The notes under the pieces: generated by a model
What the model was told of the DNA's origin: nothing
The model's database searches: none
What the model saw: the letters and a program-made list of their open reading frames with translations, nothing else
In this document: piece after piece, positions 1 through 28,235 of the stretch
Layout: each line of letters starts with the position of its first letter
How positions within the stretch are numbered: the first letter of the stretch is position 1
DNA from: Gammaproteobacteria bacterium
Lineage (GTDB): Bacteria; Pseudomonadota; Gammaproteobacteria; SZUA-229
Assembly (NCBI GenBank): GCA_030595325.1
Contig: JAUVDN010000002.1
Location: 705-64,704 of the forward strand
Length of the DNA stretch: 64,000 nt
Direction: 5' to 3'
Made by a program: the position numbers and the translations under genes

Positions 1-521
1 GCCACAGCTACCTTGGTCATTTTTATTTTATCGGTGTTATCTCGCTTCATCTTCCATGCTGCACTGAGTCGTTTAGACTTCATTTGGCTTTCTTCAAAGG
101 CTCGGCTCATTATCACAATTGAAATGAATAATTCGTTTGTATTTAGGTTTTCATATTCATATTTCATGCCGTCTGAAAGTGTTACAATCGTTATTTGTTT
201 TTCAAGAATGGATAAAAAAAGTTTAAGAGCAGTGGGTACGCTTTGTCTTGATAGTCGGTCAAGATTTTCAACGATTAAATATGAGCCTGCGGAGATAACA
301 CCTGTTTCAATTGCTTGTAGAAAATCAGCCAATGCGCCTTGTTCAGCATTTTTTCCTTTGTATGCGCTAACGCCTTTATCATATAGCGAAAGAGATGTGT
401 CCATAATCAAATTGTTTTCCTTGCAATACAATTCAGACATTTCTTTTTGGCGTACGAGTGAGTTGCCTTTAATTTGTTCAGGTCTTGAAAACCTGATGTA
501 ACTATATGCTTTTATAGGCAT
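1..521 (-). CDS. Serine recombinase (resolvase/invertase-type catalytic domain); 5' end intact, 3' end runs off the window
   Basis: Absent from the ORF track because there is no stop inside the window. Reverse-strand translation from the ATG at 521-519 reads MPIKAYSYIRFSRPEQIKGNSLVRQKEMSELYCKENNL...GSYLIVENLDRLSRQSVPTALKLFLSILEKQITIVTLSDG. The YxRxSxxxQ nucleophile motif, GNSLxRQ and VENLDRLSR are serine-recombinase hallmarks. AAAGG lies 6 nt upstream of the ATG. The + strand ORF 13..501 is its antisense shadow. Confidence 0.8.
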   Translation of the reverse strand, partial: MPIKAYSYIRFSRPEQIKGNSLVRQKEMSELYCKENNLIMDTSLSLYDKGVSAYKGKNAEQGALADFLQAIETGVISAGSYLIVENLDRLSRQSVPTALKLFLSILEKQITIVTLSDGMKYEYENLNTNELFISIVIMSRAFEESQMKSKRLSAAWKMKRDNTDKIKMTKVAV

Positions 522-546
522 TATTGACCTTTGTGATATTTATAAT

Positions 547-1599
547 ATGAGACCAGTCCATCTTCTAACCGTAATAGAAAAAGAGTTTTTAAGTGCTTCT
601 GAACATAAGGGGTTAATATACCACACCCCTGTGATGTTGTGGGGTGCGCCAGGTGTTGGCAAATCGCAGATGGTGGCTCAGGTTGCCGAACGGCAAAACA
701 CACCACTGATTGATATCCGTTTGTCACAGATGGAGCCCAGTGACCTGCGCGGCATTCCATTTAAAGTAGGTGATACTGTCGAATGGGCAGTGCCTGCGAT
801 GTTACCTAATGCAGAGCGTCACGGTAACAACGGTATTTTATTTCTCGACGAAATTACGTCAGCTCCGCCCAGTGTGTCAGCTGCTGCGTATCAATTAATT
901 CTTGATAGAAAACTAGGTGAGTATGAAGTACCTGATGGCTGGGCGATTATTGCTGCAGGTAACAGGCAGGGTGATCGTGGTGTGACCTACAGCATGCCCG
1001 CACCGTTAGCGAACCGTTTCTCGCATTATGAAGTTGATATCAATCTGGATGACTGGGTTGCATGGGCTTATGCTAATGGCATCGACGAACGTGTTATTGC
1101 CTTTTTGCGTTTTCGTCAGGATCTATTGTTTGAGTTCGACGCATCGCAAAATCCAGTGGCGTTTCCTTCACCGCGTTCGTGGGAATTTGCACATCGTGCA
1201 TTACATAAATTTGAAGACTACCCTGAACTGTTTTCAGGTGCATTACAGGCCTGTGTAGGAAAAGCGGCCGGAATCGAACTGGCGGCATTTATCGCCAGTC
1301 TGGATCAGTTGCCGGATCTTGACGCTATCATCAAAGGCGAAGAAGTTGATACACCCAAAGAAATCGATTTACAGTATGCGGTAGCAACTGCGTTGGTTGG
1401 TCGTGCTATCCGTGCCAAAGATACGGATGATGCGATGAAGGTTCACGGAAATATTTTAACTTACGCCAACCGTTTCCCGCAGCGTGAAATGGGTGTGATG
1501 ATGGTTTCAGATATGCATCGTGCTATTGGACAGGATATTTTTTCAGTGCCGGAGTTTGCCAGTTGGGCTGACAAGATTGCTGACTTGATGCTTTATTAA
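547..1599 (+). CDS. MoxR-like AAA+ ATPase (AAA_5 / CbbQ-NorQ-CobS-like)
   Basis: Walker A GAPGVGKS, Walker B ILFLDEI, sensor-1-like IIAAGN, about 350 aa. Followed by a VWA-domain gene, the usual MoxR partner. Confidence 0.85.
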   Translation: MRPVHLLTVIEKEFLSASEHKGLIYHTPVMLWGAPGVGKSQMVAQVAERQNTPLIDIRLSQMEPSDLRGIPFKVGDTVEWAVPAMLPNAERHGNNGILFLDEITSAPPSVSAAAYQLILDRKLGEYEVPDGWAIIAAGNRQGDRGVTYSMPAPLANRFSHYEVDINLDDWVAWAYANGIDERVIAFLRFRQDLLFEFDASQNPVAFPSPRSWEFAHRALHKFEDYPELFSGALQACVGKAAGIELAAFIASLDQLPDLDAIIKGEEVDTPKEIDLQYAVATALVGRAIRAKDTDDAMKVHGNILTYANRFPQREMGVMMVSDMHRAIGQDIFSVPEFASWADKIADLMLY

Positions 1600-1602
1600 A
1601 GC

Positions 1603-1696
1603 AATGAATAACGAATAATGAATAGTGAATAATTAGAAGCTAAAAATATGGTTTATTCTCTCAGCATTATTCAGTATTCAGTATTCAGTATTCATT
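1603..1696. repeat. Inverted pair of NTGAATA heptamer arrays (32-nt arms, 30-nt spacer) between the AAA+ and VWA genes
   Basis: Left arm 1603-1634 is aatgaataacgaataatgaatagtgaataatt. Right arm 1665-1696 is cattattcagtattcagtattcagtattcatt. The reverse complement of the right arm matches the left arm at 27 of 32 positions by hand alignment. Confidence 0.75.
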
Positions 1697-1704
1697 AAGC
1701 TGTT

Positions 1705-2964
1705 ATGTCTAGCTTCCCCGATGTTGAACAAAAACTTGCTGCAGCCAGAATACGTTTAATTCTGGACAAGCCTTTTCTAGGCGCGCTGGTTTTACGACTA
1801 CCGATGGTGGCCGGTGATTCCAAATGGTGTGAGTCAACCTTCAGTGACGGTAAAACATTTTATTACAATCACGATTACATCGATGCTCTTGATCAAGAGC
1901 AGACGCAATTTGCGCTTTCACATGAAGCGCTGCATTGTGCACTTTCACATTTTCATCGCCGTGGCCATCGGGTAAAACACCGTTGGGACCTGGCCTGCGA
2001 TTATGCGGTTAACCCTCTATTAATAAATGATGGCTTAAAGCCGACACCCGATGCCATGCACCTTCGCGAATATGAGGGTATGACGGCGGAAGAAATCTAC
2101 CCTTGTCTCGAAGATAATGATAATGATGGCGAACGGGATTTAGAAAGTAAAAAGCAATCTGATAATGCTGATAGTGATGATGAACAATCAAGTCAGGGCA
2201 ATGGCGGTGGTGGCAAGGAAAAGGAAAAACAAAACGACGAGCAGAGTGAAGGTCAGGGCGAACAGGATAAAGATCAGGATGATGCGGGTAAGGGTGGCTC
2301 AACGCCGCAACCAGCAGGATTGTCTCAGCAAGAAGAGGATGAGTTAAGTCTGCAATGGGAGCAACGTCTGGCAGGCGCTGCACAACAGGCATTACAGTCA
2401 GGTAAGTTAGAAGGTGAAATGGCTAGAATGGTTGATCATCTGCTGCAGCCAAAACTACCCTGGCGCATGTTGCTTGCACGTTATATGTCAGCCACCGCCA
2501 GGGAAGATTACAGTTATACAAGACCTTCATCACGCCGTGGAGATCCGGCGGTTTATCCGAGTATGCGTAGCAACGAGACTAATATCGTTGTTGCTGTTGA
2601 TACCAGCGGTTCGATAGACCAGGAAGAAATCGAAGAATTTATTTCAGAGATCGATGCAATAAAAAGTCAGGTGCGTGCCAGTGTTACGCTGCTTACTTGT
2701 GATTCAAAATTAAATTATGGTTGTCCCTGGTTTTTTGAGGCATGGGATCAGTTTCAGTTTGACGTGGAGATTCGTGGCGGTGGTGGCACAAACTTTAAAC
2801 CAGTTTTTGAGTGGGTCGAAAAGCAGGATAAAGCACCAGATTTACTGGTTTATTTTACTGATGCAGATGGTGTGTTTCCAGAAGTTGAACCAAATTTCCC
2901 TGTGACATGGTTGGTCAAGGGTAAATCAAAAGTGCCTTTCGGTGTAAGGGTTCAGTTAAATTAG
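1705..2964 (+). CDS. VWA-domain protein with N-terminal putative Zn-metallopeptidase domain (DUF2201-type architecture)
   Basis: HExxH motif (SHEALHCALSHFHRRGH), MIDAS DxSxS motif (VVAVDTSGSID), and a roughly 80-residue acidic/Gly low-complexity insert (DNDNDGERDLESKKQSDNADSDDEQSSQGNGGGGKEKEKQNDEQSEGQGEQDKDQDD). Sits downstream of the MoxR ATPase. Confidence 0.75.
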   Translation: MSSFPDVEQKLAAARIRLILDKPFLGALVLRLPMVAGDSKWCESTFSDGKTFYYNHDYIDALDQEQTQFALSHEALHCALSHFHRRGHRVKHRWDLACDYAVNPLLINDGLKPTPDAMHLREYEGMTAEEIYPCLEDNDNDGERDLESKKQSDNADSDDEQSSQGNGGGGKEKEKQNDEQSEGQGEQDKDQDDAGKGGSTPQPAGLSQQEEDELSLQWEQRLAGAAQQALQSGKLEGEMARMVDHLLQPKLPWRMLLARYMSATAREDYSYTRPSSRRGDPAVYPSMRSNETNIVVAVDTSGSIDQEEIEEFISEIDAIKSQVRASVTLLTCDSKLNYGCPWFFEAWDQFQFDVEIRGGGGTNFKPVFEWVEKQDKAPDLLVYFTDADGVFPEVEPNFPVTWLVKGKSKVPFGVRVQLN

Positions 2965-4089
2965 ATGGCACTTTCAGCAGAAGATAACTTACGTCTAAAC
3001 GTTTTGCTTGCGCAAGAGCTTTATGCTGTGCGTATCGATGAATCAAAGATGATTGTCTACGCATTAACCGCTAAAGGTGAGGCAAAGGTTCCTCTCAATG
3101 CGATAGGTAAAGACGATCCTTATTTAAAAGAGATTAAAGCATTATTTAGTACCCATGTAATGGGATCTCCTGGCGGTTATCCTGTCTATCTGAAGCGATG
3201 GACACGTATGGGGCAGGCGCGTGATGATAGTCTCGCGCAATTGTTATTGCTCGGCGAGCCTGAAGCAGTTGTGGCAGCAGTGCATGCACCAGGCTTAACT
3301 GATGAGATGGCAGCGCGAGCTTGGTGGGCAATGCCAACGTCAGAAAATGCAAGACGCATGTTGGAGAAACAAGCTGTCGTCGAAGGCGAGACGGGAAAAG
3401 TGCTAGCGGAATTCTTACTGGAGTTCTTACCGTTTGAAGAAGAGCAGAGTGATATGATTGATTCTGTTCGACTTGTGTTGCAGCCAGGGCTCATCAGTCA
3501 GCAAGAGAAAGATAAACTCTGGAAAAAAACAAAATCAAAGCGAAGTTTCTATGTTGGTTTTTTACATGCTGCAGCAGATGATCTACCGATTGATGTGGCT
3601 GCTCATGCTGATTATGAAACGGTTAAAGAGAAACTGCTTTCTTTAATCGAGAAAGAAAATCCATATGCAATAATGTTGGAAAAAGTATTAAGTGAAAATG
3701 GTCAGGCTTTTGTCCAAACAGTAGAAGATGCAATTAAGAAGCCGGGTAATCAGGATGTTGTGGTTTCGTTATTGTCCGCTGTAGCGAAATATTTTGAAAG
3801 TATTGTTCCAGATGTATTTACAGAGGATGACGTTGAAATTATCCGTACTGAAGCTAATGCGTTATGTTGTGGTGATAATGAATCTCTTAACGAAGTACTT
3901 GCCGTGCTTAATGATTCAAATGATAAAGTTCAGGATTATCTCTGCGCCATGACTGTATTGGCTTGTTTGAGTGTCAAACTGGTTAATCCTATCTTTGCTC
4001 GTACTGATGCTATTGGTACAGTGATGCGTAAAAAAATAAAACCGGTAACAGATCCTATACTAGAACAACTCCAAATACTGCGTAACTAA
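2965..4089 (+). CDS. Hypothetical protein (374 aa), no recognisable motif; start abuts the VWA gene stop
   Basis: Long ORF on the same strand. Its ATG at 2965 immediately follows the TAG at 2962-2964. Composition is protein-like, with no TM segment or signal peptide apparent. Confidence 0.6.
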   Translation: MALSAEDNLRLNVLLAQELYAVRIDESKMIVYALTAKGEAKVPLNAIGKDDPYLKEIKALFSTHVMGSPGGYPVYLKRWTRMGQARDDSLAQLLLLGEPEAVVAAVHAPGLTDEMAARAWWAMPTSENARRMLEKQAVVEGETGKVLAEFLLEFLPFEEEQSDMIDSVRLVLQPGLISQQEKDKLWKKTKSKRSFYVGFLHAAADDLPIDVAAHADYETVKEKLLSLIEKENPYAIMLEKVLSENGQAFVQTVEDAIKKPGNQDVVVSLLSAVAKYFESIVPDVFTEDDVEIIRTEANALCCGDNESLNEVLAVLNDSNDKVQDYLCAMTVLACLSVKLVNPIFARTDAIGTVMRKKIKPVTDPILEQLQILRN

Positions 4090-4098
4090 AATTTAAGT

Positions 4099-4638
4099 AT
4101 GCGATTTGATAAAGTACTTATTATCATTGATGTGCAATTGAAGGCCGATCAATTACAGCAATATTTGCCCTGTTCAGTAAATATTATCGGTAGAACATTG
4201 GCTGCGATTGCTGATGAATACGAAAAAGAAAACAAAACCGGTTACTACCCTGCAATTGATTTCTTTAAGAAGCTGGATAGCGTTGATCCTGATTTAATTG
4301 CATCAGCAGAACAGGTGGCATGGCTGGTGGCAAAGTTGGCACGTGAAACCATCCAGTTAAAATTACGTCCTATCTTTTCATCTGTGCAAATTCAATCGAT
4401 TCAGACGCTTGCGTTTTCTTTGCCTAAGATCCGTCCAAACAAAGCAGATGCTATTGATCAGCTTGCAAAGCATTACACGCCAGACAGTGTGAAAATAGAA
4501 CTTGTGCTTACTATGATGCGTCGTGATTCAGAATCAGAAGACAATCGTGCTGTGTTGTACGCAAGAAAGATGATGTTTCGTTGGTTGGAGTCAGAATTTG
4601 AAATGATTGAGGTGACTAGCTCTAAGTCTTTGCAGTGA
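4099..4638 (+). CDS. Hypothetical protein (179 aa), no recognisable motif
   Basis: Same-strand ORF starting 9 nt after the previous stop. No clear SD sequence. No motif recognised. Confidence 0.5.
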   Translation: MRFDKVLIIIDVQLKADQLQQYLPCSVNIIGRTLAAIADEYEKENKTGYYPAIDFFKKLDSVDPDLIASAEQVAWLVAKLARETIQLKLRPIFSSVQIQSIQTLAFSLPKIRPNKADAIDQLAKHYTPDSVKIELVLTMMRRDSESEDNRAVLYARKMMFRWLESEFEMIEVTSSKSLQ

Positions 4639-4649
4639 ATTTAATATTA

Positions 4650-4991
4650 TTAAAGCAGTAACTTATATTCATCGTCTTTAAAACCAATCAGTATTGCATT
4701 TCCACTTTCGAGTACGGGACGTTTTATCGCGCTTGGGTTTTCCAGCATAACTTTTATCGCTGACTTTTCATCAATGTTGTTTTTGATGTCGTCACCAAGT
4801 TTTCGCCAGGTGGTTCCGCGTTTATTTAGTACGATTTCCCAACCCGCTTTTTGAATCCATTGTTTCAGGCATTTCTCAGGCACGCCCAGCTTTTTATAAT
4901 CGTGGAATTCGTATTTCAGATTATTGTTATCTAACCACTTGCGAGCTTTCTTCATGGTGTCGCAATTAGGAATGCCGTATATTTTAATCAT
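4650..4991 (-). CDS. yffB: ArsC/Spx-family glutaredoxin-like protein (YffB-like)
   Basis: MIKIYGIPNCDTMKKARKWLDNNNLKYEFHDYKK...RGTTWRKL...IKRPVL closely parallels E. coli YffB. The track ORF starts at 5015, but Met9 (4991) matches the family N-terminus. The position next to dapD is conserved. Confidence 0.8.
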   Translation of the reverse strand: MIKIYGIPNCDTMKKARKWLDNNNLKYEFHDYKKLGVPEKCLKQWIQKAGWEIVLNKRGTTWRKLGDDIKNNIDEKSAIKVMLENPSAIKRPVLESGNAILIGFKDDEYKLLL

Positions 4992-5012
4992 AGTATTCTG
5001 CTTTATATCACA

Positions 5013-5041
5013 CATAAACCCCTCTCCCTATGGGAGAGGGG
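5013..5041 (-). terminator. GC-rich perfect hairpin followed by a T-run (minus strand) downstream of dapD
   Basis: cccctctccc-tat-gggagagggg at 5019-5041 gives a 10-bp perfect stem with a 3-nt loop. On the minus strand it is followed by TTTATGTG. Confidence 0.5.
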
Positions 5042-5061
5042 CGGGGTGAGGGTATGATTAT

Positions 5062-5886
5062 TTAATCAATATCACGCAGTAATTCATTTAAGCCAGTCTT
5101 ACCACGAGTTTTTTCATCTACCTGTTTAACGATTACTGCGCAGTAAAGACTGTATGTACCGTCTTTGGATGGTAGGTTACCGGATACAACAACAGAGCCG
5201 GCTGGTATGCGACCGTATGAAATTTCACCGGTCATACGATTAAATATTTTTGTGCTTTGGCCGATGTAGACACCCATTGATATAACAGAGCCTTCTTCAA
5301 CGATAACACCTTCTACAACTTCTGAGCGTGCACCGATGAAACAGTTGTCTTCAATAATAGTTGGAGAGGCCTGTAGTGGTTCTAAAACGCCACCAATGCC
5401 AACACCGCCAGAGAGGTGAACGTTTTTACCTATCTGTGCACATGAGCCGACTGTTGCCCAGGTATCGACCATAGTGCCGGTATCAACGTAAGCACCAATG
5501 TTTACGTATGACGGCATCAGTACTACGCTTGGCGCAACATAAGAACCAAAGCGAGCTGTTGCTGGTGGTACCACGCGGACACCTGATTCACGAAATTCTT
5601 TTGTGTTTAGGTCGGCAAATTTGGAATTAACTTTGTCGTAGTAATTGGTGAAGCCGCCTTTGATAAATTCGTTATCATTGATGCGGAAAGAAAGCAACAC
5701 TGCTTTTTTCAACCATTCATTGACTACCCAGTCGCCATCAATTTTTTCAGCGACACGTGCTTCACCTGAATCGAGTAAGTTTACCGCCTGTGTAACAGCA
5801 TCAGAGATGTGTGTTTCTACGTTACGTGGTGTGATATCGGCGCGGCGTTCGAATGCTTCTTCTATTATGCTTTTTAATTCAGACAT
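5062..5886 (-). CDS. dapD: 2,3,4,5-tetrahydropyridine-2,6-dicarboxylate N-succinyltransferase
   Basis: 274 aa with hexapeptide-repeat C-terminal half, a typical DapD N-terminus ([20 protein letters not shown]) and the [34 protein letters not shown] region. Confidence 0.93.
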
Positions 5887-5927
5887 GGTGTGTTCTCCAA
5901 AAAATGTTTGTTTCTAATTGATTATTT

Positions 5928-7148
5928 CTAATTGTTTGTGTTTAATGTTTGTATGTATTCTTTAATTCGATTGGCAGCGGTAATGCACTCATCTAATGGC
6001 GCAACCAATGCAAGACGGACGTGATTTTTTCCAGGGTTTATACCATCGCTTTCACGGGATAGGTAACTGCCTGGTAGTACGGTGACGTTTTGTTGTGCAA
6101 ACAAATCTTTAGCAAAATTTTCATCATCGATGGGTGTGTTTAACCATAGGTAAAAACCAGCATCTGGCAGTGTTACGTTGATGACCGGTTTTAATATTTC
6201 AATGACAGCATCAAACTTTTTAACGTAAAGTTCTCGGTTGTGTTTGACGTGTGTTTCATCATTCCATGCTTCTATGCTGGCGATTTGGTGCACAGGTGGC
6301 ATGGCACACCCGTGATACGTGCGGTAGAGCACATATGATTTAATCAGATTTTCATCACCGGCAACAAAACCTGAGCGCATACCGGGAAGGTTTGAGCGTT
6401 TCGATAAACTATGAAACACGATGCAGTTTTCAAAAGATTTGTTGCCGTATTCTTCAGCGGCTTCTAATAGTCCTGCTGGAGGGTTGCTTTCATCAAAGTA
6501 AATCTCTGAATAACATTCATCAGAGACGATAGTGAAATTGTGTTTTAGTGCGAGAGCTATCAGCTTTTTGAGTTGCTGTTTTGAGATAACACTACCAGTA
6601 GGATTACCCGGTGTGCAGATGTAGATAATCTGACAGCTATCCCAGGTGCTCTCTTCAATCGCATCAAAATCGGGCAAATAATTATTTTCTTTTTCTGTGT
6701 TGTAGAAATAAGGTTCGGCTCCTGATAGAAAGGCAGCTCCCTCATATATTTGATAAAAAGGGTTCGGCATTAATACCAGTGCACCATCAGAGCGATTGAC
6801 CATGCATTGAGCGAAGGAAAATAATGCTTCACGTGTGCCTGTTACGGGTAGGATGTTTGTTTCAGCATCGAGCGCGTCTGCCGCTAATTTAAATCGACGT
6901 GTTAACCAGTTAGCGATAGCTAATCGTAATTCCAGACTGCCTTTTGTAAGCGGGTAGCGATTAATCTGGTTCAGATTGTTGGTAATAGATTCCAGTACAA
7001 ATTTTGGTGCGTCATGTTTAGGTTCGCCGATAGAGAGTGCGATGTGACCTTCGATAGCCGGTTGACCATTTTCTAGCTGGCAGCTTGCTTTTAAAGCGTT
7101 GAGCTTTTCAAACGGGTAGGGTTGAAGTTTTTGTAAATCTGGATTCAT
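5928..7148 (-). CDS. dapC: Succinyldiaminopimelate transaminase (class I/II aminotransferase)
   Basis: N-terminus MNPDLQKLQPYPFEKLNALK is typical of proteobacterial DapC. PLP-lysine context is SLSKRSNLPGMRSGF. Adjacent to dapD. Confidence 0.75.
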   Translation of the reverse strand: MNPDLQKLQPYPFEKLNALKASCQLENGQPAIEGHIALSIGEPKHDAPKFVLESITNNLNQINRYPLTKGSLELRLAIANWLTRRFKLAADALDAETNILPVTGTREALFSFAQCMVNRSDGALVLMPNPFYQIYEGAAFLSGAEPYFYNTEKENNYLPDFDAIEESTWDSCQIIYICTPGNPTGSVISKQQLKKLIALALKHNFTIVSDECYSEIYFDESNPPAGLLEAAEEYGNKSFENCIVFHSLSKRSNLPGMRSGFVAGDENLIKSYVLYRTYHGCAMPPVHQIASIEAWNDETHVKHNRELYVKKFDAVIEILKPVINVTLPDAGFYLWLNTPIDDENFAKDLFAQQNVTVLPGSYLSRESDGINPGKNHVRLALVAPLDECITAANRIKEYIQTLNTNN

Positions 7149-7202
7149 TTCGGGGTCGATAATTTATCTTGTGTGGTGCTATACAATGGTAATCATAAAC
7201 GT

Positions 7203-7228
7203 TGACTACAAATGGTGACTACAAACAG
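7203..7228. repeat. 13-nt direct repeat x2 (tgactacaaaNNN) in the dapC / VOC divergent promoter region
   Basis: tgactacaaa occurs at 7203-7212 and again at 7216-7225. Confidence 0.6.
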
Positions 7229-7319
7229 TAATCGCTAACTGAATAGCTGTGGGCTAAGTTGCACAATGTAGCAGGGGCGGTATTATAAGCGATTTATCAT
7301 ATTCCTTCAGGGGTAATCT

Positions 7320-7706
7320 ATGCCGCAAGATAGTCTGCCGCTAATTAAGGCACTTGATCACTGCAGTCTAATCGTCAACAGCACCAGTAAAGCACTTGAG
7401 TTTTATGTGGGAATATTGAACTTAGAAGTCGACGATGCACGCCCCGACCTTGGTTATCCCGGGGTCTGGTTGAAAGTAGGTGAGAGTCAAATACATTTGT
7501 TAGAGCTACCTAATCCAGATTCTGTTGATGACAGGCCTGAACATGGTGGTCGTGATCATCATGTAGCTTTACAGGTGGTAGATTTAAATATTCTTATCCA
7601 ACGGCTTAAAGCGGCGAATATAAGGTATACGAAAAGTAAATCGGGTCGTGAAGCTTTATTTTGTCGAGACTATGATGGTAATGCCATTGAGCTTCTAGAG
7701 CGCTAA
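7320..7706 (+). CDS. VOC (glyoxalase/bleomycin-resistance/dioxygenase) family protein
   Basis: 128 aa with LDHCSLIV...ALEFYVGILNLEV...HVALQV...DYDGNAIELLE, the typical VOC beta-alpha-beta-beta-beta module pattern. Confidence 0.7.
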   Translation: MPQDSLPLIKALDHCSLIVNSTSKALEFYVGILNLEVDDARPDLGYPGVWLKVGESQIHLLELPNPDSVDDRPEHGGRDHHVALQVVDLNILIQRLKAANIRYTKSKSGREALFCRDYDGNAIELLER

Positions 7707-7811
7707 ATTAATGTAACCTATTGATATACATATTATATATATTAATTGAATGCTGTTCTTGGCGAGTAATAATTGACATTTAGTGCAATCTATATTAGAA
7801 TCAACTAATAT

Positions 7812-8507
7812 ATGAAAAACTTAATATTCAAAACATTACAGCTTACTCTGTTAGGAGTGATGCTTTATATCCCCGCACTAGCATTTGCCGAAGATGAGGA
7901 TGTTTGTGCGCCATTAAAAGGTGCACAGATAGATCAGAACATATTAGCAGTAATGCTTAAAGCTGCTGATGATGGTGGTCTGTATCGTATTCAACCCGAT
8001 TCGTCAAAAATGGGGTTTTGTATAAATAGTCCGGTAGGTAAAGTCGAAGCAGAATTTCATCGTTTTAACGGTGGTTTGGCATTAAAAGAGTTTAATGCGC
8101 AAAGTCCATCTTCGAAATCAAGTGTTTCGCAAGGCAGTGTAGTCGTCAGAATTGCGGTTGATAGTCTGGAAACAGACTCGATGGTTATTGAGTCCATGTT
8201 AAAAAGTGAAAGCTTTTTTGATAGTGAGAAATACCCGGATATCATATTTGTTAGTACAGAGATTGAATGGATAAGTGATAAAAAAGCCATCTTTAAAGGT
8301 GACTTGACCATGCGCGGTATTACTAAAAAAGTTGCTTTTTACGTTGATCTGAAAAAAGTAAAAACACCGCAGGGTGAAGATGTGGTTACAGTCAAAGCGA
8401 CAACAACTATCCAGCGCTCACAGTTTGATATGTTTACACTTTCACCGTTAGTTGATGACCGCGTGAACCTGTGCATGACTATTGATGCTTATCGTTATAA
8501 AGCCTGA
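7812..8507 (+). CDS. YceI-family periplasmic protein
   Basis: Signal peptide MKNLIFKTLQLTLLGVMLYIPALAFA. The C-terminal half, FDSEKYPDIIFVST...FKGDLTMRGITKKVAFYV, matches the YceI-like domain pattern. Confidence 0.72.
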   Translation: MKNLIFKTLQLTLLGVMLYIPALAFAEDEDVCAPLKGAQIDQNILAVMLKAADDGGLYRIQPDSSKMGFCINSPVGKVEAEFHRFNGGLALKEFNAQSPSSKSSVSQGSVVVRIAVDSLETDSMVIESMLKSESFFDSEKYPDIIFVSTEIEWISDKKAIFKGDLTMRGITKKVAFYVDLKKVKTPQGEDVVTVKATTTIQRSQFDMFTLSPLVDDRVNLCMTIDAYRYKA

Positions 8508-8529
8508 GTATTATTGCTTTGGCTGTAGT

Positions 8530-8557
8530 TATTTGAGTGTTGCTATTTGAGTGCTAC
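8530..8557. repeat. 14-nt tandem repeat x2 between convergent yceI-like and msrB genes
   Basis: tatttgagtgttgc (8530-8543) followed by tatttgagtgctac (8544-8557). Confidence 0.6.
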
Positions 8558-8606
8558 TAATGGTGCATGATACTAAGCATCGCTACTATAGTCCTTTCTC
8601 TCTGAC

Positions 8607-9149
8607 TTACTCTTTAGCTTTAAACAAACTTGCGTATTTTTCATAGCCTTCAGTTTTTAACTCTTCTTTTGGCACAAAACGTAACGAAGCGGAGTTAATG
8701 CAGTATCGTAAGCCTGAAGGTTCCGGTCCATCACTAAATACATGGCCTAAGTGTGAGTTGGCATTAGCACTGCGTACTTCAGTACGAGGAAAGATTAAAT
8801 AATAATCCGTTTTTTCTGCGACATTAGCTGATTCCAGTGGCTTATAAAAACTGGGCCAACCGGTTCCAGATTTAAATTTATGTGTTGAAGAAAAAAGCGG
8901 TTCACCGCTTACGACATCGACGTAGATGCCGTCTCTCTTTTCATCCCAGTATTCGTTGCTAAACGGGCGTTCAGTATCATCATTTTGGGTAACAGAATAT
9001 TGTAACGGTGTCAGCTGTTGTTTTAATTCTGAATCTGTCGGTATTATGTAATTACTCAATGAATTTTCTTGTTTGCTGCTGTCGCTGAATGCGTTAGACA
9101 TGCTCAGTACAGATACCATGCAGGTGAGTACAAGAATTAGTTTTTTCAT
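8607..9149 (-). CDS. msrB: Peptide-methionine (R)-S-oxide reductase, exported, single-Cys form
   Basis: GTGWPSF and RYCINS motifs. N-terminal signal peptide [22 protein letters not shown]. The Zn-binding CxxC pairs and the resolving Cys are absent. Confidence 0.88.
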
Positions 9150-9302
9150 AGTTTGCCTGTCGGAGGTTTAAATTGGTTACCGTGTGTGACAGCTAATGGG
9201 ATGAAAAGTTTCGGATATCACTCTGTCTTTAAATATGTGCTGATGACGTAAATTTCAGTTTTACGCGGGGAGTGTTGCAGGCTGGGGTATTCGACAGAAA
9301 AA

Positions 9303-9389
9303 TGGTACCGGAGGCCGGACTTGAACCGGCACTCTATTGCTAGAACGGGATTTTGAATCCCGCGTGTCTACCAATTCCACCACTCCGGC
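9303..9389 (-). tRNA. tRNA-Leu (anticodon CAA), type II with long variable arm, CCA encoded
   Basis: Reverse complement is GCCGGAGTGGTGGAATTGGTAGACACGCGGGATTCAAAATCCCGTTCTAGCAATAGAGTGCCGGTTCAAGTCCGGCCTCCGGTACCA. It folds by hand into a cloverleaf: anticodon stem CGGGA/TCCCG with loop TTCAAAA, variable arm TCTA-GCAA-TAGA, and T arm GCCGG-TTCAAGT-CCGGC. Confidence 0.9.
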
Positions 9390-9468
9390 ATGCTTCGAGG
9401 TGTTAGTGCAGCGCGAATTCTATAGTAAATAACGCTGTGTTAATAGCAGTTATGGCCAATTTGTACGG

Positions 9469-9771
9469 CTATTTTGGAAAGACTTTTTTAAATGGTTTGA
9501 CGGTTACCTTATCGTAAACACCGGCAGCGACATACGGGTCAACATCTGCCCAGCTTGTGGCATCTTCTAAATTATCAAATTCAGCAACCACCAGACTGCC
9601 GCTAAAACCAGATTCACCGGGATCTTCACTGTCAATGGCAGGGTGAGGGCCAGCGAGAATTAAACGTCCTTGTTCCTGCAGAGCGGTCAGGCGTTCCAGA
9701 TGTTCAGGTCTGGCTGCCAGTCTATCTTGCAGACTGTTGGCAACGTCTTGTGCAATGATTGCATATAACAT
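9469..9771 (-). CDS. YciI-family protein
   Basis: 100 aa reading [28 protein letters not shown]...[11 protein letters not shown]...[23 protein letters not shown], the typical YciI pattern. Sits downstream of yciB. Confidence 0.8.
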
Positions 9772-10448
9772 TATGCTTTATCTCCATTGTCATCCAAATC
9801 TTTAGTGTCGTCGTCTTTCCCTTTTAAGTCATCTTCAGAGATGTGGCGTGACAGATATAACGCCTGCAGGATAACAAAACCAATAGTGAGTCCCATCAAG
9901 CCGAATAGTTTGAAATTAACCCAGGTATCCATTCTGGCTTCTGGTGTTGCACCGACGTTGTAGTAAAAAGCAACATATAAGTTTGCCGCACCACTGATAA
10001 AAAAGAAGGTGACCCAGGAGAGGTTTAACGTTGACCAGACTTTTTCAGGTAGCTCAATGTGCTCCCCCATCATACGTTGAATAATGGGTCTTTCGCCAAC
10101 GTGCATACTGCCAAGAAAAACACCGGCAAATAACCAGTTCAGTACTGTCGGTTTCCATTGAATAAATGCAGGGTTGCCAAAAAAGATGGTGATACTGCCG
10201 AGTACGGTAATCAGTACCAATGAAAAAATATGCATACGTTCAAATTTGTGTGTTTTGAACCAATGCACGCCGACCTGAATAAAGCTGGCAAGGATGGCCA
10301 TACCGGTTGCAACGATAGTGGCGGCGATAAAATCTGGCTTTGCTGGGTCAATCAGTTGACCGATAAAAGTATTATCAATTAGAAAACTTGCCTGATAATA
10401 ACTAACAAAGAATAGAATAATTGGAAAAAAATCAAATAGTAACTTCAT
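9771..10448 (-). CDS. yciB: Intracellular septation protein A (YciB/IspZ) with acidic C-terminal extension
   Basis: [19 protein letters not shown]-terminus, multiple TM segments, and a C-terminal tail [20 protein letters not shown]. Confidence 0.85.
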
Positions 10449-10522
10449 TATCTTAATGTGTTTTATTGGCTTGGTGTTAGCCTTGCTGTTTATCGAAGGC
10501 TGGCATTATACCGAACTTCGTT

Positions 10523-10658
10523 AATGAATAATGAATAATGAGCAGTGAAGAATAGAAAGAATTTTTATCGCTGGTTTTACATAATTTGTTATTGGTAAAA
10601 TATCAGTAAGTGATATTTTTGTTTTTAATTGTTAATTATTCACTATTCATTTTTCATT
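10523..10658. repeat. Second inverted pair of NTGAATA heptamer arrays
   Basis: Left arm 10523-10563 is aatgaataatgaataatgagcagtgaagaatagaaagaatt. Right arm 10634-10658 is aattattcactattcatttttcatt, whose reverse complement is aatgaaaaatgaatagtgaataatt. Confidence 0.65.
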
Positions 10659-10686
10659 AATTTTTCACAACGTGTAAAATTCCCCC

Positions 10687-11304
10687 ATGAGTCAGTATTT
10701 TGAAATCCATCCGGAAAATCCACAAAAGCGTCTAATAAAACAAGCGGTAGATATTATTCATAAGGGTGGGGTGATTGTCTATCCAACGGATTCCAGCTAC
10801 GCACTGGGCTGTCATATCGGCGATAAAAACGCGGTTGAGCGGCTACGGCGGATTCGACAGATTGATGATAAACATAACTTAACGCTGGTCTGTCGTGATC
10901 TGTCTGAAATTGCGACCTATGCAAAAATTGAAAATACGGATTATCGTCTGCTCAAGTCATTAACACCGGGTCCATATACCTTCATCCTTCCTGCGACTAG
11001 CGAGGTTCCTCGTCGTTTGATGCACCCGAAGCGCAGACATATCGGGCTACGTGTTATGAATCATCCGGTGGTGAACGAGCTGCTTGATGAACTGGGTCAG
11101 CCGTTGATTAGCTGTACTCTGGTGATGCCGGGCGAGGAATTGCCGGTTACTGAGGCCGAAGATGTCCGTTCCATGCTGGAAAAGCATGTTGACCTGATTA
11201 TCGATGGTGGTCATTGCGGTATCGAACCAACCACGGTAATTCGATTGACCGATGGTATCCCTGATATCAGGCGTCATGGTAAGGGTAAAGACCATGGGCT
11301 TTAA
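10687..11304 (+). CDS. yciO: L-threonylcarbamoyladenylate synthase-like protein, YciO subfamily
   Basis: MSQYFEIHPENPQKRLIKQAVDIIHKGGVIVYPTDSSYALGCHIGDKNAVERL is near-colinear with E. coli YciO as I recall it. Confidence 0.85.
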   Translation: MSQYFEIHPENPQKRLIKQAVDIIHKGGVIVYPTDSSYALGCHIGDKNAVERLRRIRQIDDKHNLTLVCRDLSEIATYAKIENTDYRLLKSLTPGPYTFILPATSEVPRRLMHPKRRHIGLRVMNHPVVNELLDELGQPLISCTLVMPGEELPVTEAEDVRSMLEKHVDLIIDGGHCGIEPTTVIRLTDGIPDIRRHGKGKDHGL

Positions 11305-11317
11305 ACAGCCCATGGTC

Positions 11318-11342
11318 AATGAATAATGAAAAGTGAATAATT
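11318..11342. repeat. Solo copy of the heptamer-array arm
   Basis: aatgaataatgaaaagtgaataatt, 14 nt after the yciO stop. Same terminal sequence (GTGAATAATT) as the arms at 1603-1634 and 10634-10658 (rc). Confidence 0.55.
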
Positions 11343-11530
11343 AAAAAACTCCAGCTAGAACAGTAGGTCAGCATAAGCGGTAGCGTTGCTGGCGATGGTG
11401 TGCAGCATGACGATGCCTGAAATGGCAGAGCCTTAATTCAGGCCTGCAATTTTTAACTGCTCAAACTTATTTTTAAGGTGTAAACTGCGCCCTGTAAAAT
11501 AATTAACAACAAGTTTCTTTATACTATTAG

Positions 11531-12184
11531 ATGTCTTCAATCCCTGATATTGCCTATACCATCGCTGTTTGGGCTGCTCCTATATTATTTGCTATCACTT
11601 TGCATGAAGCGGCGCATGGCTGGGTTGCCAATAAGTTAGGTGACCCCACAGCAAAAAATCTGGGGAGAATTACGATAAACCCTATAAAACATATCGATCC
11701 CATGGGGACGGTAGTTGTACCGCTATTTCTAGCGATGGTGAGCCCGTTTGTTATGGGGTGGGCAAAACCCGTTCCGGTGCAACCTCGTTACTTTAAATCA
11801 CCGCTGCTAGACATGGCGCTGGTTGCTGTAGCTGGCCCTGTATCAAATTTTGTCATGGCTTGCATCTGGGCAATGCTCGTCAAGCTGGCCTATATGTCTT
11901 TGGATCACTCACCATTGCTGACTTTCCTGACCGAGATGTGCAGGAACGGTATTATTATTAATATCGTGCTGATGGTGCTGAACTTGCTTCCGATTCCGCC
12001 TTTAGATGGTGGCCGGGTGGTCGCGGGTATCTTGCCCAAGCCTATACTGGCGCCTTACATGCAGCTGGAACGCTATGGCATGATTATTATATTGTTGTTA
12101 CTTGTTAGTGGTTTACTCGGTAAGGTATTGTGGCCATTGGTGCAGCATTTCGTCAAACTGGTTGGTTTTATTTTTGGACTTTAA
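11531..12184 (+). CDS. Site-2 protease family (M50) membrane metalloprotease
   Basis: HEAAHG (HExxH) in the first TM region, a polytopic profile, and NLLPIPPLDGG, the conserved second metal-ligand motif region. Confidence 0.8.
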   Translation: MSSIPDIAYTIAVWAAPILFAITLHEAAHGWVANKLGDPTAKNLGRITINPIKHIDPMGTVVVPLFLAMVSPFVMGWAKPVPVQPRYFKSPLLDMALVAVAGPVSNFVMACIWAMLVKLAYMSLDHSPLLTFLTEMCRNGIIINIVLMVLNLLPIPPLDGGRVVAGILPKPILAPYMQLERYGMIIILLLLVSGLLGKVLWPLVQHFVKLVGFIFGL

Positions 12185-12212
12185 AATAGATTTTAATGAG
12201 GGTTAGAGCGTC

Positions 12213-13430
12213 TTGAATACAGTAGTTACTCAACATAAACGTGTGTTATCAGGCATGCGACCGACAGGTCGTTTGCACCTGGGGCATTATCATGGTGTGC
12301 TGAAAAACTGGGTAAAGTTACAGCATGAATATGAATGTTTCTTTTTTGTAGCTGACTGGCATGCCTTAACCACGCACTACGAAGACCCGTCGATTATCGA
12401 GCAAAGCACCTGGGAAATGGTAGTCGACTGGCTGGCTGCTGGTATCAGCCCAGGCTCGGCTAAATTGTTTTTGCAGTCTAAAGTGCCTGAGCATGCTGAG
12501 TTGCATACATTATTATCGATGATCACGCCGCTGAGCTGGTTGGAGCGGGTGCCAACCTATAAAGATCAACAGGCAAAGCTCAAAGAAAAGGATCTGGCAA
12601 CGTATGGCTTTCTGGGCTACCCCTTACTGCAGAGTGCAGATATTCTGGTCTATAAAGCAGGAATGGTACCTGTCGGTGAGGATCAGGTGGCTCATGTTGA
12701 ACTAACTCGTGAAGTGGCTCGCCGGTTTAATCACCTTTATGGTCGCGAGCCGGGCTTTAAAGAAAAAGCCAAACAGGCAGCAGCCAAGATGGGCAAGAAA
12801 AATGCCCGTATGTTTTTTCAGTACAGAAAAAGTTATCAGGAACAAGGTGATGCAGAGGCGTTAAGTGTGGCAAAAGCCTTGCTCGATTCACAGCAAAATA
12901 TTTCGATAGGCGATAAAGAGCGGTTATTCGGTTATCTGGAAGGCTCGGGTAAAATAATTTTGCCGGAGCCACAGGCATTGTTAACCCCTGCATCTAAAAT
13001 GCCTGGTCTGGACGGTCAAAAAATGTCCAAGTCATATAATAATACCATCGCATTGCGCGATGATATGGACACTGTTGCCAACAAATTGCGCACTATGCCG
13101 ACGGATCCTGCAAGAGTGCGACGCACTGATCCGGGTGACCCGAAAAAATGCCCAGTGTGGAAATTTCATGAAGTTTATTCTAACGATGAAACACGTGACT
13201 GGGTGAAAAATGGCTGCACCAGTGCTTCCATTGGCTGTGTAGAGTGCAAGCAGCCGGTCATTGACGCGGTGATCGCCGAATTGAAACCCATGCAGGAACG
13301 GGCGAAAGAATATGAAGATGATATCACTACGGTAAAAGCTATCATTGAAGAAGGAAATGAAGCCGCAAGAGAGGTTGCTCGTGATACACTGGAAGACGTC
13401 AGAAAAGCGATGGGCATCGCTTACATATAA
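12213..13430 (+). CDS. trpS: Tryptophan--tRNA ligase (long form)
   Basis: The HIGH-type motif (PTGRLHLGHYHG), KMSKS and overall class I layout are present. TTG start at 12213 with GAGGG 10 nt upstream. Confidence 0.9.
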   Translation: MNTVVTQHKRVLSGMRPTGRLHLGHYHGVLKNWVKLQHEYECFFFVADWHALTTHYEDPSIIEQSTWEMVVDWLAAGISPGSAKLFLQSKVPEHAELHTLLSMITPLSWLERVPTYKDQQAKLKEKDLATYGFLGYPLLQSADILVYKAGMVPVGEDQVAHVELTREVARRFNHLYGREPGFKEKAKQAAAKMGKKNARMFFQYRKSYQEQGDAEALSVAKALLDSQQNISIGDKERLFGYLEGSGKIILPEPQALLTPASKMPGLDGQKMSKSYNNTIALRDDMDTVANKLRTMPTDPARVRRTDPGDPKKCPVWKFHEVYSNDETRDWVKNGCTSASIGCVECKQPVIDAVIAELKPMQERAKEYEDDITTVKAIIEEGNEAAREVARDTLEDVRKAMGIAYI

Positions 13431-14404: not shown

Positions 14405-14480
14405 AGCGATAGTTAAATCTACTTGTTAAGTAGAGTGTTAATTAGGCAACAACCATTTAGAAAATAATTATTAATACAGA

Positions 14481-14555
14481 ATAATTAAAGCAGCAATAAT
14501 TAAAACAGCAGTAATTAAAACAGCAATAATTAAAACAGCAATAATTAAGAAAGCA
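14481..14555. repeat. 15-nt tandem repeat x5 (ATAATTAAARCAGCA) in the scpA-scpB spacer
   Basis: Units at 14481, 14496, 14511, 14526 and 14541: ataattaaagcagca / ataattaaaacagca / gtaattaaaacagca / ataattaaaacagca / ataattaagaaagca. A 12-nt duplication gatagttaaagc/gatagttaaatc at 14396-14419 spans the scpA stop. Confidence 0.9.
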
Positions 14556-14590
14556 ACAACCGCCGAACTTAAAAAGCTTGAGGCTATGTC

Positions 14591-16521: not shown

Positions 16522-17568
16522 ATGAAAACAATTAATGTTTTAGTTTTTGTATTCCTCGTTTCACTGTGTAACCCGACTGTTGTAATTGCTAAGTCTGAGG
16601 GTGAGTTAAGTGCTGGCATGGTGAATCCAGGCCATGAAGAGCACCCGTCCTGGTTCAAGGTGTCCTTCCTCGATCTATTCGAAGATGTCGAGGATGCAGC
16701 AGATAATAATAAGCGTTTGATGATCTATTATTATCAGGATGGTTGCCCATACTGTAAAAAACTTCTGCAAGATAATTTTTCTCAGCGAAAGATATCTGAT
16801 AAAGCTAAAAAATATTTTGACGTGGTATCGATAAATCTTTGGGGTGATAAAGAAGTTACTGTTGGTGATAAAACTTATACTGAAAAAGAGTTTGCTGAAG
16901 CGCTAAAGGTTCAATATACCCCGACACTATTATTTTTTGATGAAAACAAAAAAATAATCTTCCGTGCAAATGGTTATTACCCGCCTGAAAAATTTAGTGC
17001 ATTACTAGATTATACCGGTAGCAAGAAAAATGCCGAGTCAAGTTATCAGGCGTATATGGCTAAGGTGAGTCCGCAGCCTTCAACAGGACGTCTTCATGAT
17101 GATATCAATAGTGTTTTATCAGTATCTGACCTGTCCAGTGCAGGGTCAGTAAATAAAAATAAGTATACACTGGTCATGTTTGAACAGAAAAAATGTAATA
17201 CCTGTGATGAGCTTCACCTTGATATCTTAAAGCGAAGAGAGAGTGTTGATTTGTTAGCAAGGTTTAATGTGGCGGTCGTTGACATGTGGTCTAATAAATC
17301 CGTTATCACACCATCGGGTGAAAAGTTAAAGCTACAGGAATGGGCTAAAAAACTAGATATTAAATATGCACCAAGTTTAGTGTTTTTTGATGATATGGGT
17401 ACTGAGGTGTTTCGAGCAGATGCCTATCTGAAAGCTTTTCACACGCAATCTGTTATGGATTATGTATCTACCGGTACATATAAAACACAGAGTAATTTTC
17501 AGCGTTATATTGATAAACGCGCCGATCATCTGCGTGAGCAGGGAATTGAAGTCAACCTGATGGAATAA
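16522..17568 (+). CDS. Exported protein with two thioredoxin-fold modules (CPYC and CNTC)
   Basis: Signal peptide MKTINVLVFVFLVSLCNPTVVIA. Two CxxC contexts, YYYQDGCPYCKKL and FEQKKCNTCDEL, are each followed by a YTPTLLFF / YAPSLVFF thioredoxin-like strand. Confidence 0.6.
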   Translation: MKTINVLVFVFLVSLCNPTVVIAKSEGELSAGMVNPGHEEHPSWFKVSFLDLFEDVEDAADNNKRLMIYYYQDGCPYCKKLLQDNFSQRKISDKAKKYFDVVSINLWGDKEVTVGDKTYTEKEFAEALKVQYTPTLLFFDENKKIIFRANGYYPPEKFSALLDYTGSKKNAESSYQAYMAKVSPQPSTGRLHDDINSVLSVSDLSSAGSVNKNKYTLVMFEQKKCNTCDELHLDILKRRESVDLLARFNVAVVDMWSNKSVITPSGEKLKLQEWAKKLDIKYAPSLVFFDDMGTEVFRADAYLKAFHTQSVMDYVSTGTYKTQSNFQRYIDKRADHLREQGIEVNLME

Positions 17569-17624
17569 TTAATGAATCTACAGATGAACCAATTTTTGCA
17601 TCAATTTATGGGCTAAGACGAACG

Positions 17625-26554: not shown

Positions 26555-26610
26555 GCTCATGTATTATTGATGTAACAAGTAAAAATTTTGATGATGCTGT
26601 TTTAAGACAC

Positions 26611-26666
26611 ACAAATTAAGACACACAAATTAAGACGTACAAATTAAGACGTACAAATTAAGAAGT
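26611..26666. repeat. 14-nt tandem repeat x4 (ACAAATTAAGACRY)
   Basis: acaaattaagacac / acaaattaagacgt / acaaattaagacgt / acaaattaagaagt, preceded by a partial copy from 26603. Lies 57 nt downstream of the pentapeptide gene stop. Confidence 0.9.
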
Positions 26667-26819
26667 TCACATAAAGATTCGGGGCATGTAGGTCAGGGGA
26701 AAATTCTTCCGGAAGATGAGCTAGGTAGTGATAAGCGTCGGTGCGCGTTGTAGATGCATTAACTTTTAACCAAATTGAAGCAAAATATTTTTAACCAGAA
26801 TTTTAAGCAAGAATAAACT

Positions 26820-28221: not shown

Positions 28222-28235
28222 AATTGAGAATAGTT

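Follow-up and report, generated by a model that had tools for sequence, protein, structure and literature searches.

The DNA analysed here, referred to as the window, is a 64 000-nt stretch of a genome of Gammaproteobacteria bacterium (assembly GCA_030595325.1, contig JAUVDN010000002.1, positions 705 to 64 704 of the forward strand). Between some of its genes lie five tandem arrays of a heptamer, TGAATAN. We think that these arrays are probably the terminal arms of miniature members, lacking an open reading frame (ORF), of a widespread family of small foldback cassettes with an RNase III-type stem. Such a cassette would consist of about 4–5 purine-rich heptamers, a short spacer or an ORF of ~120 codons, and an inverse pyrimidine-rich array; it would occupy the spacer from a stop codon to the next start codon. 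Full-length relatives would carry a gene for a four-helix-bundle protein (PF05635/TIGR02436), and a parallel class would combine octamer arms with a GxxExxY (PF13366) gene. The arrays are present, their arms are able to pair and they are placed at gene boundaries; ORF-bearing relatives have like arms, and elements were gained, lost and replaced at one orthologous slot.

Tandem heptamers in the window

The five arrays, as read off the sequence, have three to five units apiece, span 1.6–11.4 kb and are all intergenic. A two-unit pattern, TGAATAATGAATA, had 20 matches with up to two mismatches in the 64-kb window versus 4.4 ± 2.0 in dinucleotide shuffles, none of which reached 20. The pattern (TGAATAN)x3 with up to three mismatches produced 14 matches in five clusters, while 0.23 were expected by chance (the largest shuffle had 2); the remaining 52 kb of the window had none. 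Tandem Repeats Finder (TRF) gave period 7 for all five arrays, with 2.9–4.4 copies. The parts of the arrays are as follows.

1603..1634, plus strand: 5′ purine-rich arm of hairpin 1, AATGAAT AACGAAT AATGAAT AGTGAAT AATT; begins 3 nt past the stop codon of the MoxR-like gene
1635..1664, plus strand: spacer (loop) of hairpin 1, 30 nt
1665..1696, minus strand: 3′ pyrimidine-rich arm of hairpin 1, ATTATTC, AGTATTC three times, ATT; ends 8 nt short of the VWA start codon at 1705
10523..10563, plus strand: 5′ arm of hairpin 2, AATGAAT AATGAAT AATGAGC AGTGAAG (10523–10551), then decaying units up to ~10563
10564..10629, plus strand: spacer of hairpin 2, 66 nt, with a small hairpin inside
10630..10658, minus strand: 3′ arm of hairpin 2, its inverse being TGAAAAATGAATAGTGAATAATTAACA; ends 28 nt short of the yciO start codon
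11318..11346, plus strand: solo purine-rich array, AATGAAT AATGAAA AGTGAAT AATTAAA; starts 13 nt past the yciO stop codon

The first-pass annotation of this DNA had described arrays of 3–5 tandem heptamers at these places, which the TRF period and the excess over shuffles confirm; the extents were adjusted to 10523–10551 (with decay to ~10563), 10630–10658 and 11318–11346. The claim that all arrays end in GTGAATAATT had to be given up, as it applies to three of the five (1625–1634, 11333–11342 and the inverse copy 10630–10639). Two regions listed there as partial look-alikes, 17563–17580 and 57429–57442, are one or two units rather than arrays.

Pairing and folding of the arms

Arrays 1603/1665 and 10523/10630 converge from opposite strands, the purine arm coming first and the pyrimidine arm second; with their inverted arms they make up units of 94 nt (hairpin 1) and about 136 nt (hairpin 2). 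Pair 1 has 27 paired positions out of 31, 4 mismatches and a 30-nt spacer, close to the earlier count of 27/32 with the same spacer. Inverted pairs make up two of the three loci. The forward arrays in the window come after stop codons, and the arm proximal to a start codon is the inverse one. The third locus, 11318..11346, has no partner downstream; its sole inverse partner is arm 10630–10658, across yciO.

The RNA fold of hairpin 1 (1596–1712) has −28.4 kcal/mol (z −4.2), with −30.7 (z −6.1) for the other strand; for hairpin 2 (10518–10664) the values are −34.1 and −25.7 kcal/mol. Over both pairs and both strands the z-scores are between −4.2 and −6.1. The folds of the two units uphold the earlier idea of an intergenic repeat family whose inverted pairs form long hairpins.

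An orthologous hairpin 1 is present in two related loci, L001 and L002 (L numbers designate loci and contigs used in comparisons), with 93.5% of cells paired. Between L001 and L002 two positions are changed on both sides of the stem, C-G/U-A and A-U/G-C, and unit variants are mirrored across the arms: AACGAAT with ATTCGTT in L002, AGTGAAT with ATTCACT in L001. Such double changes are suggestive of covariation. Three identical TATTCAG units (1668–1694) in the 3′ arm of the window point to recent homogenisation, at the cost of four pairs in hairpin 1, and show that slippage or conversion also shapes the arrays.

The 5′ arm of hairpin 1 (1603..1634) contains TGA and TAA and, as its period is 7, has stop codons in all three frames and closes them within 21 nt; no frame is closed in the 3′ arm. 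A 16-codon mini-ORF (MVYSLSIIQYSVFSIH, 1649–1699) begins in the loop of hairpin 1, crosses the 3′ arm and stops 5 nt ahead of the VWA start; it is also open in L001 and L002. Arrays of TTATTCA are free of stop codons in every frame, so this mini-ORF is probably trivial, a by-product of the stop-free arm, though it could allow coupled re-initiation.

PF05635 genes between heptamer arms

The repeat had been called genome-specific, which did not hold. A scan of metagenome contigs for three exact TGAATA-type units returned >120 contigs with G+C from 0.18 to 0.68. About a dozen of these have a convergent pair with a 40–90 nt spacer beside gene ends, contigs of 57% and 62% G+C (L198, L167) included. 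A convergent TGAATA-type pair is present in a Firmicute spoIIIA operon (L125), and inverted heptamer arms of this type occur in Halarcobacter and in a metagenome-assembled genome (MAG) of Rickettsiales. A+T-rich TGAATA arms in G+C-rich genomes are hints of either sequence-specific recognition or recent transfer.

In contig L084 the arms, (AGTGAAT)x4 and (TATTCAC)x4, surround a 119-codon ORF that codes for a four-helix-bundle protein assigned to PF05635 (‘23S_rRNA_IVP’). With a PF05635-type profile built from 120 homologues we found more four-helix-bundle ORFs in L109, L116, L143 and L157, each between inverted heptamer arrays. Contig L109 has both forms, an ORF-less hairpin and an ORF-bearing cassette, with GTGAATA arms in each; they lie 1 kb apart, on either side of one ABC-transporter gene.

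Six further PF05635 cassettes were picked by protein similarity alone (L201, L203, L205, L209, L213–216 with the same slot in L218/219, and L217). Inverted heptamer arms were seen in six out of six, chosen as they were without heptamer selection, and so in all 11 independent PF05635 ORFs examined. The flanks of all 11 ORF-bearing cassettes are protein-coding sequence, not rRNA. The six cassettes picked by protein are listed with their arms.

L201, Rickettsiales MAG: AGTGAAT AACGAAT ... CTATTCG CTATTCA
L203, Halarcobacter bivalviorum, between a Mur ligase gene and a HIT gene: AATGAAT AAGGAAT AGTGAAC ... ATTATTC ACTAATC ATTGTTC ATTATTC
L205–208, human-gut metagenome contigs, between genes for a DNA methyltransferase (N6_N4_Mtase) and a helicase-type restriction endonuclease: GAGAGTG / CTCCACA
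L209, Endomicrobium: ATTACTA / TTAGTAA
L217, Fibrobacterales: AGAGTAA / CTACTCT
L213–216 (Xanthomonas) and L218–219 (Dyella), between accB and accC: GGGAATC-type / GATTCCC-type

The arms that bracket PF05635 ORFs are of TGAATA type in L084, L201, L203, L109 and L143, and are made of other heptamers in L116, L157, L205, L209, L213–219 and L217. A flank-complementarity score was computed for nine four-helix-bundle ORFs and for 1577 control ORFs. It was 13–28 in eight of the nine, with lag 7 as the best period in these eight; the controls had a median of 7 and a 95th percentile of 10.

In the Xanthomonas genomes compared, the upstream arm of the XCC0516-type gene, GGGAATC GGGAGTG GAGAATC GGGAATC, is the published GGGAATC repeat of this genus, and the downstream arm is CCCATTC CCCATTC CCGACTC CCTATTC CC, with the accC ATG directly after it. 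This repeat, then, brackets a PF05635-family gene between accB and accC. Solved structures of this four-helix-bundle family are 2GSC (XCC0516 of X. campestris) and 2RLD, with five chains per entry. One could speculate that each of the 4–5 heptamers of an arm might be read by one subunit of a pentameric protein.

The accB–accC cassette is fixed throughout Xanthomonas and Dyella; the insertion into this essential gene pair looks old and stably inherited. The four-helix-bundle protein of L205–L208 was seen on >100 contigs. Searches with PF05635 and PF13366 gave at least about 8000 matches each at E ≤ 1e-10.

With no PF05635 ORF in the window and spacers of 30 and 66 nt, the copies found here must be derivatives that lack an ORF. 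Judged by eye against L084, L201 and L203, neither hairpin spacer shows a recognisable trace of a four-helix-bundle ORF.

Turnover at the MoxR–VWA slot

Family assignments of the genes next to the hairpins agree with the earlier placement of pair 1 between AAA+ and VWA genes and of pair 2 between yciB and yciO. These genes, with a further hairpin at the end of yciO, are the following.

547..1599, plus strand: AAA+ MoxR-like gene (AAA_5)
1705..2964, plus strand: DUF2201_N plus VWA-like DUF2201 gene
9771..10448, minus strand: yciB (IspA family)
10687..11304, plus strand: yciO (Sua5/YciO/YrdC family), with a pyrimidine-rich arm on its upstream side and a purine-rich array on its downstream side
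11290..11317, plus strand: G+C-rich 11-bp hairpin that covers the yciO stop codon (−21.5 kcal/mol, no T-run), with the solo array directly 3′

The window was compared with 80 loci having a MoxR orthologue, and the MoxR–VWA spacer was viewed in the first 40 of the 80. The closest relatives are uncultured Thiotrichaceae or gammaproteobacterial MAGs with MoxR proteins up to 95% identical. The gene yciO is in none of the 80 MoxR loci.

The slot between MoxR and VWA genes is filled with the orthologous TGAATAN hairpin in L001 and L002 and with heptamer hairpins made of AGTGAAT/AGTTAAT and GTGAAAA in L004 and L027. Decamer arms, CAGATGAACG or CAAATGAACG, are present in about a dozen loci, and octamer arms, CGCAGAGG or CACAGAGN, in roughly as many; most of the octamer arms surround an ORF of 124–127 codons coding for a GxxExxY protein (TIGR04256, PF13366 PDDEXK_3). 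There is no insert in L020, L022 and L023; in the last two the genes abut as TAAATG. Since these states are interspersed across the MoxR tree among sequences >90% identical, the slot turns over quickly. A further difference is seen at the other end of the VWA gene: L001 and L002 have an additional octamer hairpin at the exact point where, in the window, the VWA stop codon meets the following start codon (TAGATG). The 15-nt sequence ATTAGAAGCTAAAAA (from 1631), which opens the loop of hairpin 1, recurs beside an octamer cassette in L036 (2396–2420) and L033 (11039–11075); such a relic suggests that one cassette type may have replaced another, or been inserted into it, at a shared slot.

In the 80 loci and the window, a TRF-based search yielded 51 inverted pairs of tandem arrays with periods 7–10 and arms of 24–32 nt, arm length being constant over these periods. 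All 51 are intergenic, mostly 3–50 nt off gene ends, and in 46 the purine arm precedes the pyrimidine arm. The order is strand-symmetric, and so this geometry is a real property of the elements. By the same token we rejected it as a clue to the direction of transcription; unchanged by reverse complementation, it still separates convergent pairs from divergent ones. The reversed pairs that were inspected (L025, L037 and window 10635/11318, out of five reversed) are arms of neighbouring hairpins that flank an ordinary gene.

Ordinary genes with a hairpin element in each flanking spacer were noticed in L025 (14261–14810, ArsC-family) and L125 (335–880, spoIIIAC/AD-family, PF06686); therefore a gene may look ‘flanked by inverted arrays’ without being cargo.

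In three other phyla, every GxxExxY gene picked solely by its protein is located between inverted octamer arrays of CACAGAGN or CGCAAAGN type; the sites are the operon pairs Y-family polymerase gene/dnaE2 and hisD/hisC, and an Acidobacteria contig. Loci with octamer arrays around GxxExxY genes are L014, L016, L025, L026, L031, L032 and L034–L036 (MoxR–VWA spacer), L033 (16560–17118) and L210–L212; the hosts are Gammaproteobacteria, Thermodesulfobacteriota, Anaerolineaceae and Acidobacteria.

The inverted arrays around PF13366 genes consist of three octamers (CGCAGAGN, CACAGAGN or CGCAAAGN). The GxxExxY copies in L007, L030 and L035 are truncated or frameshifted. In the window one decamer unit, ACAGATGAAC, is found just past a stop codon (17574–17590); the same unit forms hairpin arms in L003, L008, L009 and other relatives, and the window copy may be a relic of a decamer hairpin.

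Proposed mechanism and its weak points

In a read-through transcript both arms of a cassette would pair into a stem of ~30 bp. This stem would be cut by RNase III, like the 28-bp stem that the 23S rRNA intervening sequence of Coxiella forms, and cleavage would remove the insert from the RNA and part the flanking cistrons. The 5′ arm would halt ribosomes in whichever of the three frames they arrive. In the window the MoxR and VWA cistrons, which directly abut in L022 and L023, would be uncoupled translationally by hairpin 1, an effect put forward earlier and plausible from that arrangement. Removal of the insert by RNase III would make cassettes tolerable in such tight pairs as accB–accC, hisD–hisC and the methyltransferase/restriction enzyme genes.

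Several observations weigh against the cassette interpretation. The covariation in hairpin 1 (two double changes in three sequences) is not significant, as 106 of 500 shuffles reach the count, and the 3′ arm of this hairpin has drifted in the window to 4 mismatches. Five of the 11 four-helix-bundle examples (L084, L109, L116, L143, L157) came from a scan that selected for heptamers. The 64-kb window has neither a PF05635 gene (profile search in all six frames) nor a GxxExxY gene, leaving a partner in this genome unproven. RNase III cleavage, demonstrated for rRNA elements only, is extended to the window stems by analogy with the rRNA intervening sequences. Hairpin 2 lies in the spacer of a divergent gene pair, yciB/yciO, thus no read-through transcript need hold both of its arms, and the array at 11318 is solo. 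Finally, neither a target-site duplication nor another signature of transposition chemistry was found in the filled-versus-empty comparison of the window with L001/L002.

Alternative explanations

The arrays could be cis-regulatory: heptamers near start codons would be bound by the ribosome or by S1-, Csp- or CsrA-type factors tuning translation, a role already suggested for the TAACTGA repeats of Beggiatoaceae, with inversion being incidental or an on/off switch. Stop-codon-bearing heptamers in spacers of a Thiotrichaceae-like genome recall the TAACTGA repeats (MacGregor 2015, PMC4679880), and deletion of heptamer repeats altered reporter expression in Nostoc (bioRxiv 10.1101/2022.06.06.494920). 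The pyrimidine arms in the window lie 8 nt ahead of the VWA start and 28 nt ahead of the yciO start, no clear Shine-Dalgarno motif could be read in the sequence ahead of the VWA start, and other A-rich tandem arrays occupy intercistronic spacers of the window. However, TAACTGA sets are direct, forward and just ahead of start codons, with 1 of 170 inverted, not pairs that open behind a stop codon. Furthermore, like arms bracket a selfish-looking ORF in unrelated phyla, and the slot is empty or otherwise filled in close relatives, which is unexpected for a conserved regulatory site. We regard a regulatory origin of the arrays as unlikely on the whole; for the start-codon-proximal arm a TAACTGA-type regulator or ribosome array is possible. 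Plain microsatellites, generated by replication slippage in A+T-rich spacers and paired by chance or local duplication with no function, have a rather slim chance of being the answer. Among long simple-sequence repeats, heptamers show the strongest over-representation in many bacteria, an excess ascribed to polymerase slippage (Mrazek 2007, as cited in PMC4679880); the run of TATTCAG units at 1668–1694 resembles recent slippage and the window has many further short tandem repeats. Slippage does not lead one to expect unit variants mirrored in the partner arm (L001, L002), a convergent geometry in 46 of 51 pairs at a constant arm length, A+T-rich arms in contigs of 57–62% GC, or the systematic association of arms with two ORF families.

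A miniature element had been among the earlier suggestions. This part stands as far as an ORF-less form is concerned, with like arms flanking an ORF in L084, L109, L143, L201 and L203; the classical version, a MITE (miniature inverted-repeat transposable element) or repetitive extragenic palindrome (REP), does not, given tandem arms, no duplication found and no known transposase. As a classical MITE, the element would have arisen by deletion from an insertion sequence, and a DDE or HUH transposase acting in trans would mobilise it by recognising its arms as terminal inverted repeats. The inverted termini, the small size, the occurrence of several copies, the polymorphism of presence and absence at orthologous sites and the arms common to ORF-bearing and ORF-less forms would all fit. 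Still, no target-site duplication could be defined from the window versus L001/L002: the flanks of hairpins 1 and 2 and the TAGATG comparison offered A+T-rich strings such as TTAA only, indistinguishable from chance or from stem extension. The arms are tandem arrays rather than unique terminal sequences; the enclosed ORFs code for an Avd-like four-helix bundle (pentameric in 2RLD and 2GSC) or for a small PD-(D/E)XK protein, neither being a known transposase, and no transposase gene adjoins any copy examined. We therefore consider a classical MITE improbable. Long stable hairpins directly past stop codons made an intrinsic terminator or attenuator between the flanking genes worth considering, and a terminator had been proposed earlier; it now appears very improbable. 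There is no T-run behind either 3′ arm, a scan of 1400–1900 and 10400–11560 gave no terminator-like site, and the stems are A+T-rich and mismatched. Cassettes elsewhere have the following start codon right beside their 3′ arm, and the Xanthomonas accC ATG directly follows an arm inside the accB–accC pair, an arrangement that fits termination poorly.

Two other readings were dropped. Promoter scans yielded nothing convincing; matches near the hairpin 2 spacer were promoter-like but only weak. The Fur-box consensus is built of the hexamer GATAAT; a Fur-box-like reading was rejected as the period here is 7, not 6, and like arms flank ORFs in unrelated phyla.

Relation to known repeats and elements

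About 186 GGGAATC arrays, mostly of four units, were described in Xanthomonas campestris by Rehm et al. (2015, PLoS One, PMC4692102), with others in X. axonopodis; 89–93% are intergenic, at a mean distance of 28 nt from the upstream ORF, and 70–75 convergent inverted pairs were counted. They were studied as G-quadruplex formers, with function left open and no link to an ORF or to intervening sequences given. Like the window arrays, they have ~4 heptamers, are intergenic, lie near where an upstream ORF ends and form convergent pairs able to make a stem-loop. Unlike them, TGAATAN is A+T-rich, with a single G per unit and no G-tracts, and cannot form a G-quadruplex; therefore the G-quadruplex cannot define the wider class.

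Family PF05635/TIGR02436 was itself defined by ORFs inside 23S rRNA intervening sequences (Coxiella, Leptospira); functionally uncharacterised, it resembles Avd, the accessory protein of diversity-generating retroelements (PMC11270868). In the Coxiella intervening sequence a PF05635-family ORF lies between terminal inverted repeats with a 28-bp stem that is cut by RNase III in vitro (PMC4990558). Such sequences are regarded as selfish, their origin and mechanism of mobility being unknown, and ORF-less and decaying forms exist (PMC4990558, PMC11270868). The terminal stems are alike (28 bp in Coxiella; 31 positions with 27 pairs in hairpin 1), whereas the intervening sequences sit in 23S rRNA, at helix 25 or 45, and contain an ORF, and the window copies are ORF-less and sit between protein-coding genes. 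No mention of a heptamer make-up of intervening-sequence arms was found in the literature examined.

The TAACTGA repeats occur in marine Beggiatoaceae, some Cyanobacteria and Bacteroidetes as intergenic sets of 2–6 copies; these are direct arrays running toward a start codon, often ending 1 nt short of it, and the single inverted set among 170 was counted in BOGUAY (PMC4679880). They share with the window arrays stop-codon heptamers, intergenic location, patchiness across phyla and a close host lineage (relatives of the window are labelled Thiotrichaceae). They differ as direct forward arrays at start codons, where the forward arrays in the window follow stop codons and pair with an inverse array.

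Short intergenic palindromes, often intra-operon, are also typical of REP and bacterial interspersed mosaic elements (BIME) and of MITEs (Correia, ERIC, RUP); these affect mRNA stability or processing and are polymorphic between strains. A REP is a unique imperfect palindrome of ~35 nt that has a conserved GTAG head and RAYT as its partner; the window arms are tandem heptamers with no GTAG head. MITEs have unique terminal repeats and target duplications, and arms of tandem heptamers are found in none of these types. In the foldback (FB) transposons of Drosophila the terminal inverted repeats are long and composed of short tandem subrepeats, and copies occur both with and without an internal coding segment. 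The resemblance is an analogy of architecture only: these elements are eukaryotic, with kilobase-scale arms and no sequence or protein relationship to the window copies.

A wider class of cassettes

More tentatively, and short of calling it probable, we suggest that inverted arrays of tandem heptamers (octamers in the sister class) could mark the ends of small selfish cassettes that together form a very large superfamily, so far unrecognised. The cargo would be PF05635 (an Avd-like pentamer), PF13366 GxxExxY or none; insertion would be precise, between operon stop and start codons and, as intervening sequences, into rRNA, and the RNase III-type stem would render it harmless. If true, this would explain much of the heptanucleotide excess in bacteria: the Xanthomonas GGGAATC repeats and possibly the Beggiatoaceae TAACTGA and cyanobacterial heptamers. 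Three puzzles, this excess, the origin of 23S intervening sequences and the function of PF05635/PF13366, might then be facets of a single kind of element.

Elements of this kind have been seen already in Xanthomonas and, in ORF-bearing form, in the rRNA intervening sequences; the connection between them seems to be new. No paper tying heptamer arrays to PF05635 cassettes was found in the literature searched, whose coverage is incomplete, so that this is absence of evidence only; the same literature had no match to the array sequences themselves and almost nothing on PDDEXK_3/GxxExxY. For annotation, intra-operon arrays of this kind would be labelled as scars or ends of cassettes, not as promoters, terminators or random microsatellites, and small ORFs between them as cargo, not as operon members.

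Other features of the window

A search of Rfam with positions 1–12500 at E up to 1 had a tRNA as the only match, leaving the hairpins without an Rfam family; this tRNA gene (9306–9389, minus strand) lies between a YCII-family gene and an msrB-like (SelR) gene. Further spacers of the window are filled with tandem repeats of 13–15 nt (14466–14556, 63335–63432, 26602–26677, 5905–5952 and 49671–49739), for instance AATAATTAAAACAGC x6, or AGATTAATTAAAGC x3 followed by AAACAGAACAGAGC x3.6. They lie mostly between co-directional genes, with the coding strand A-rich; one begins at a stop codon and none has an inverse partner. One more heptamer array, a perfect and solo AGTTTTA x3.4 (TTAAAAC on the coding minus strand), was seen at 28232–28255 between two co-directional minus-strand genes, ~10 nt ahead of the next start codon, an arrangement similar to that of the TAACTGA repeats.

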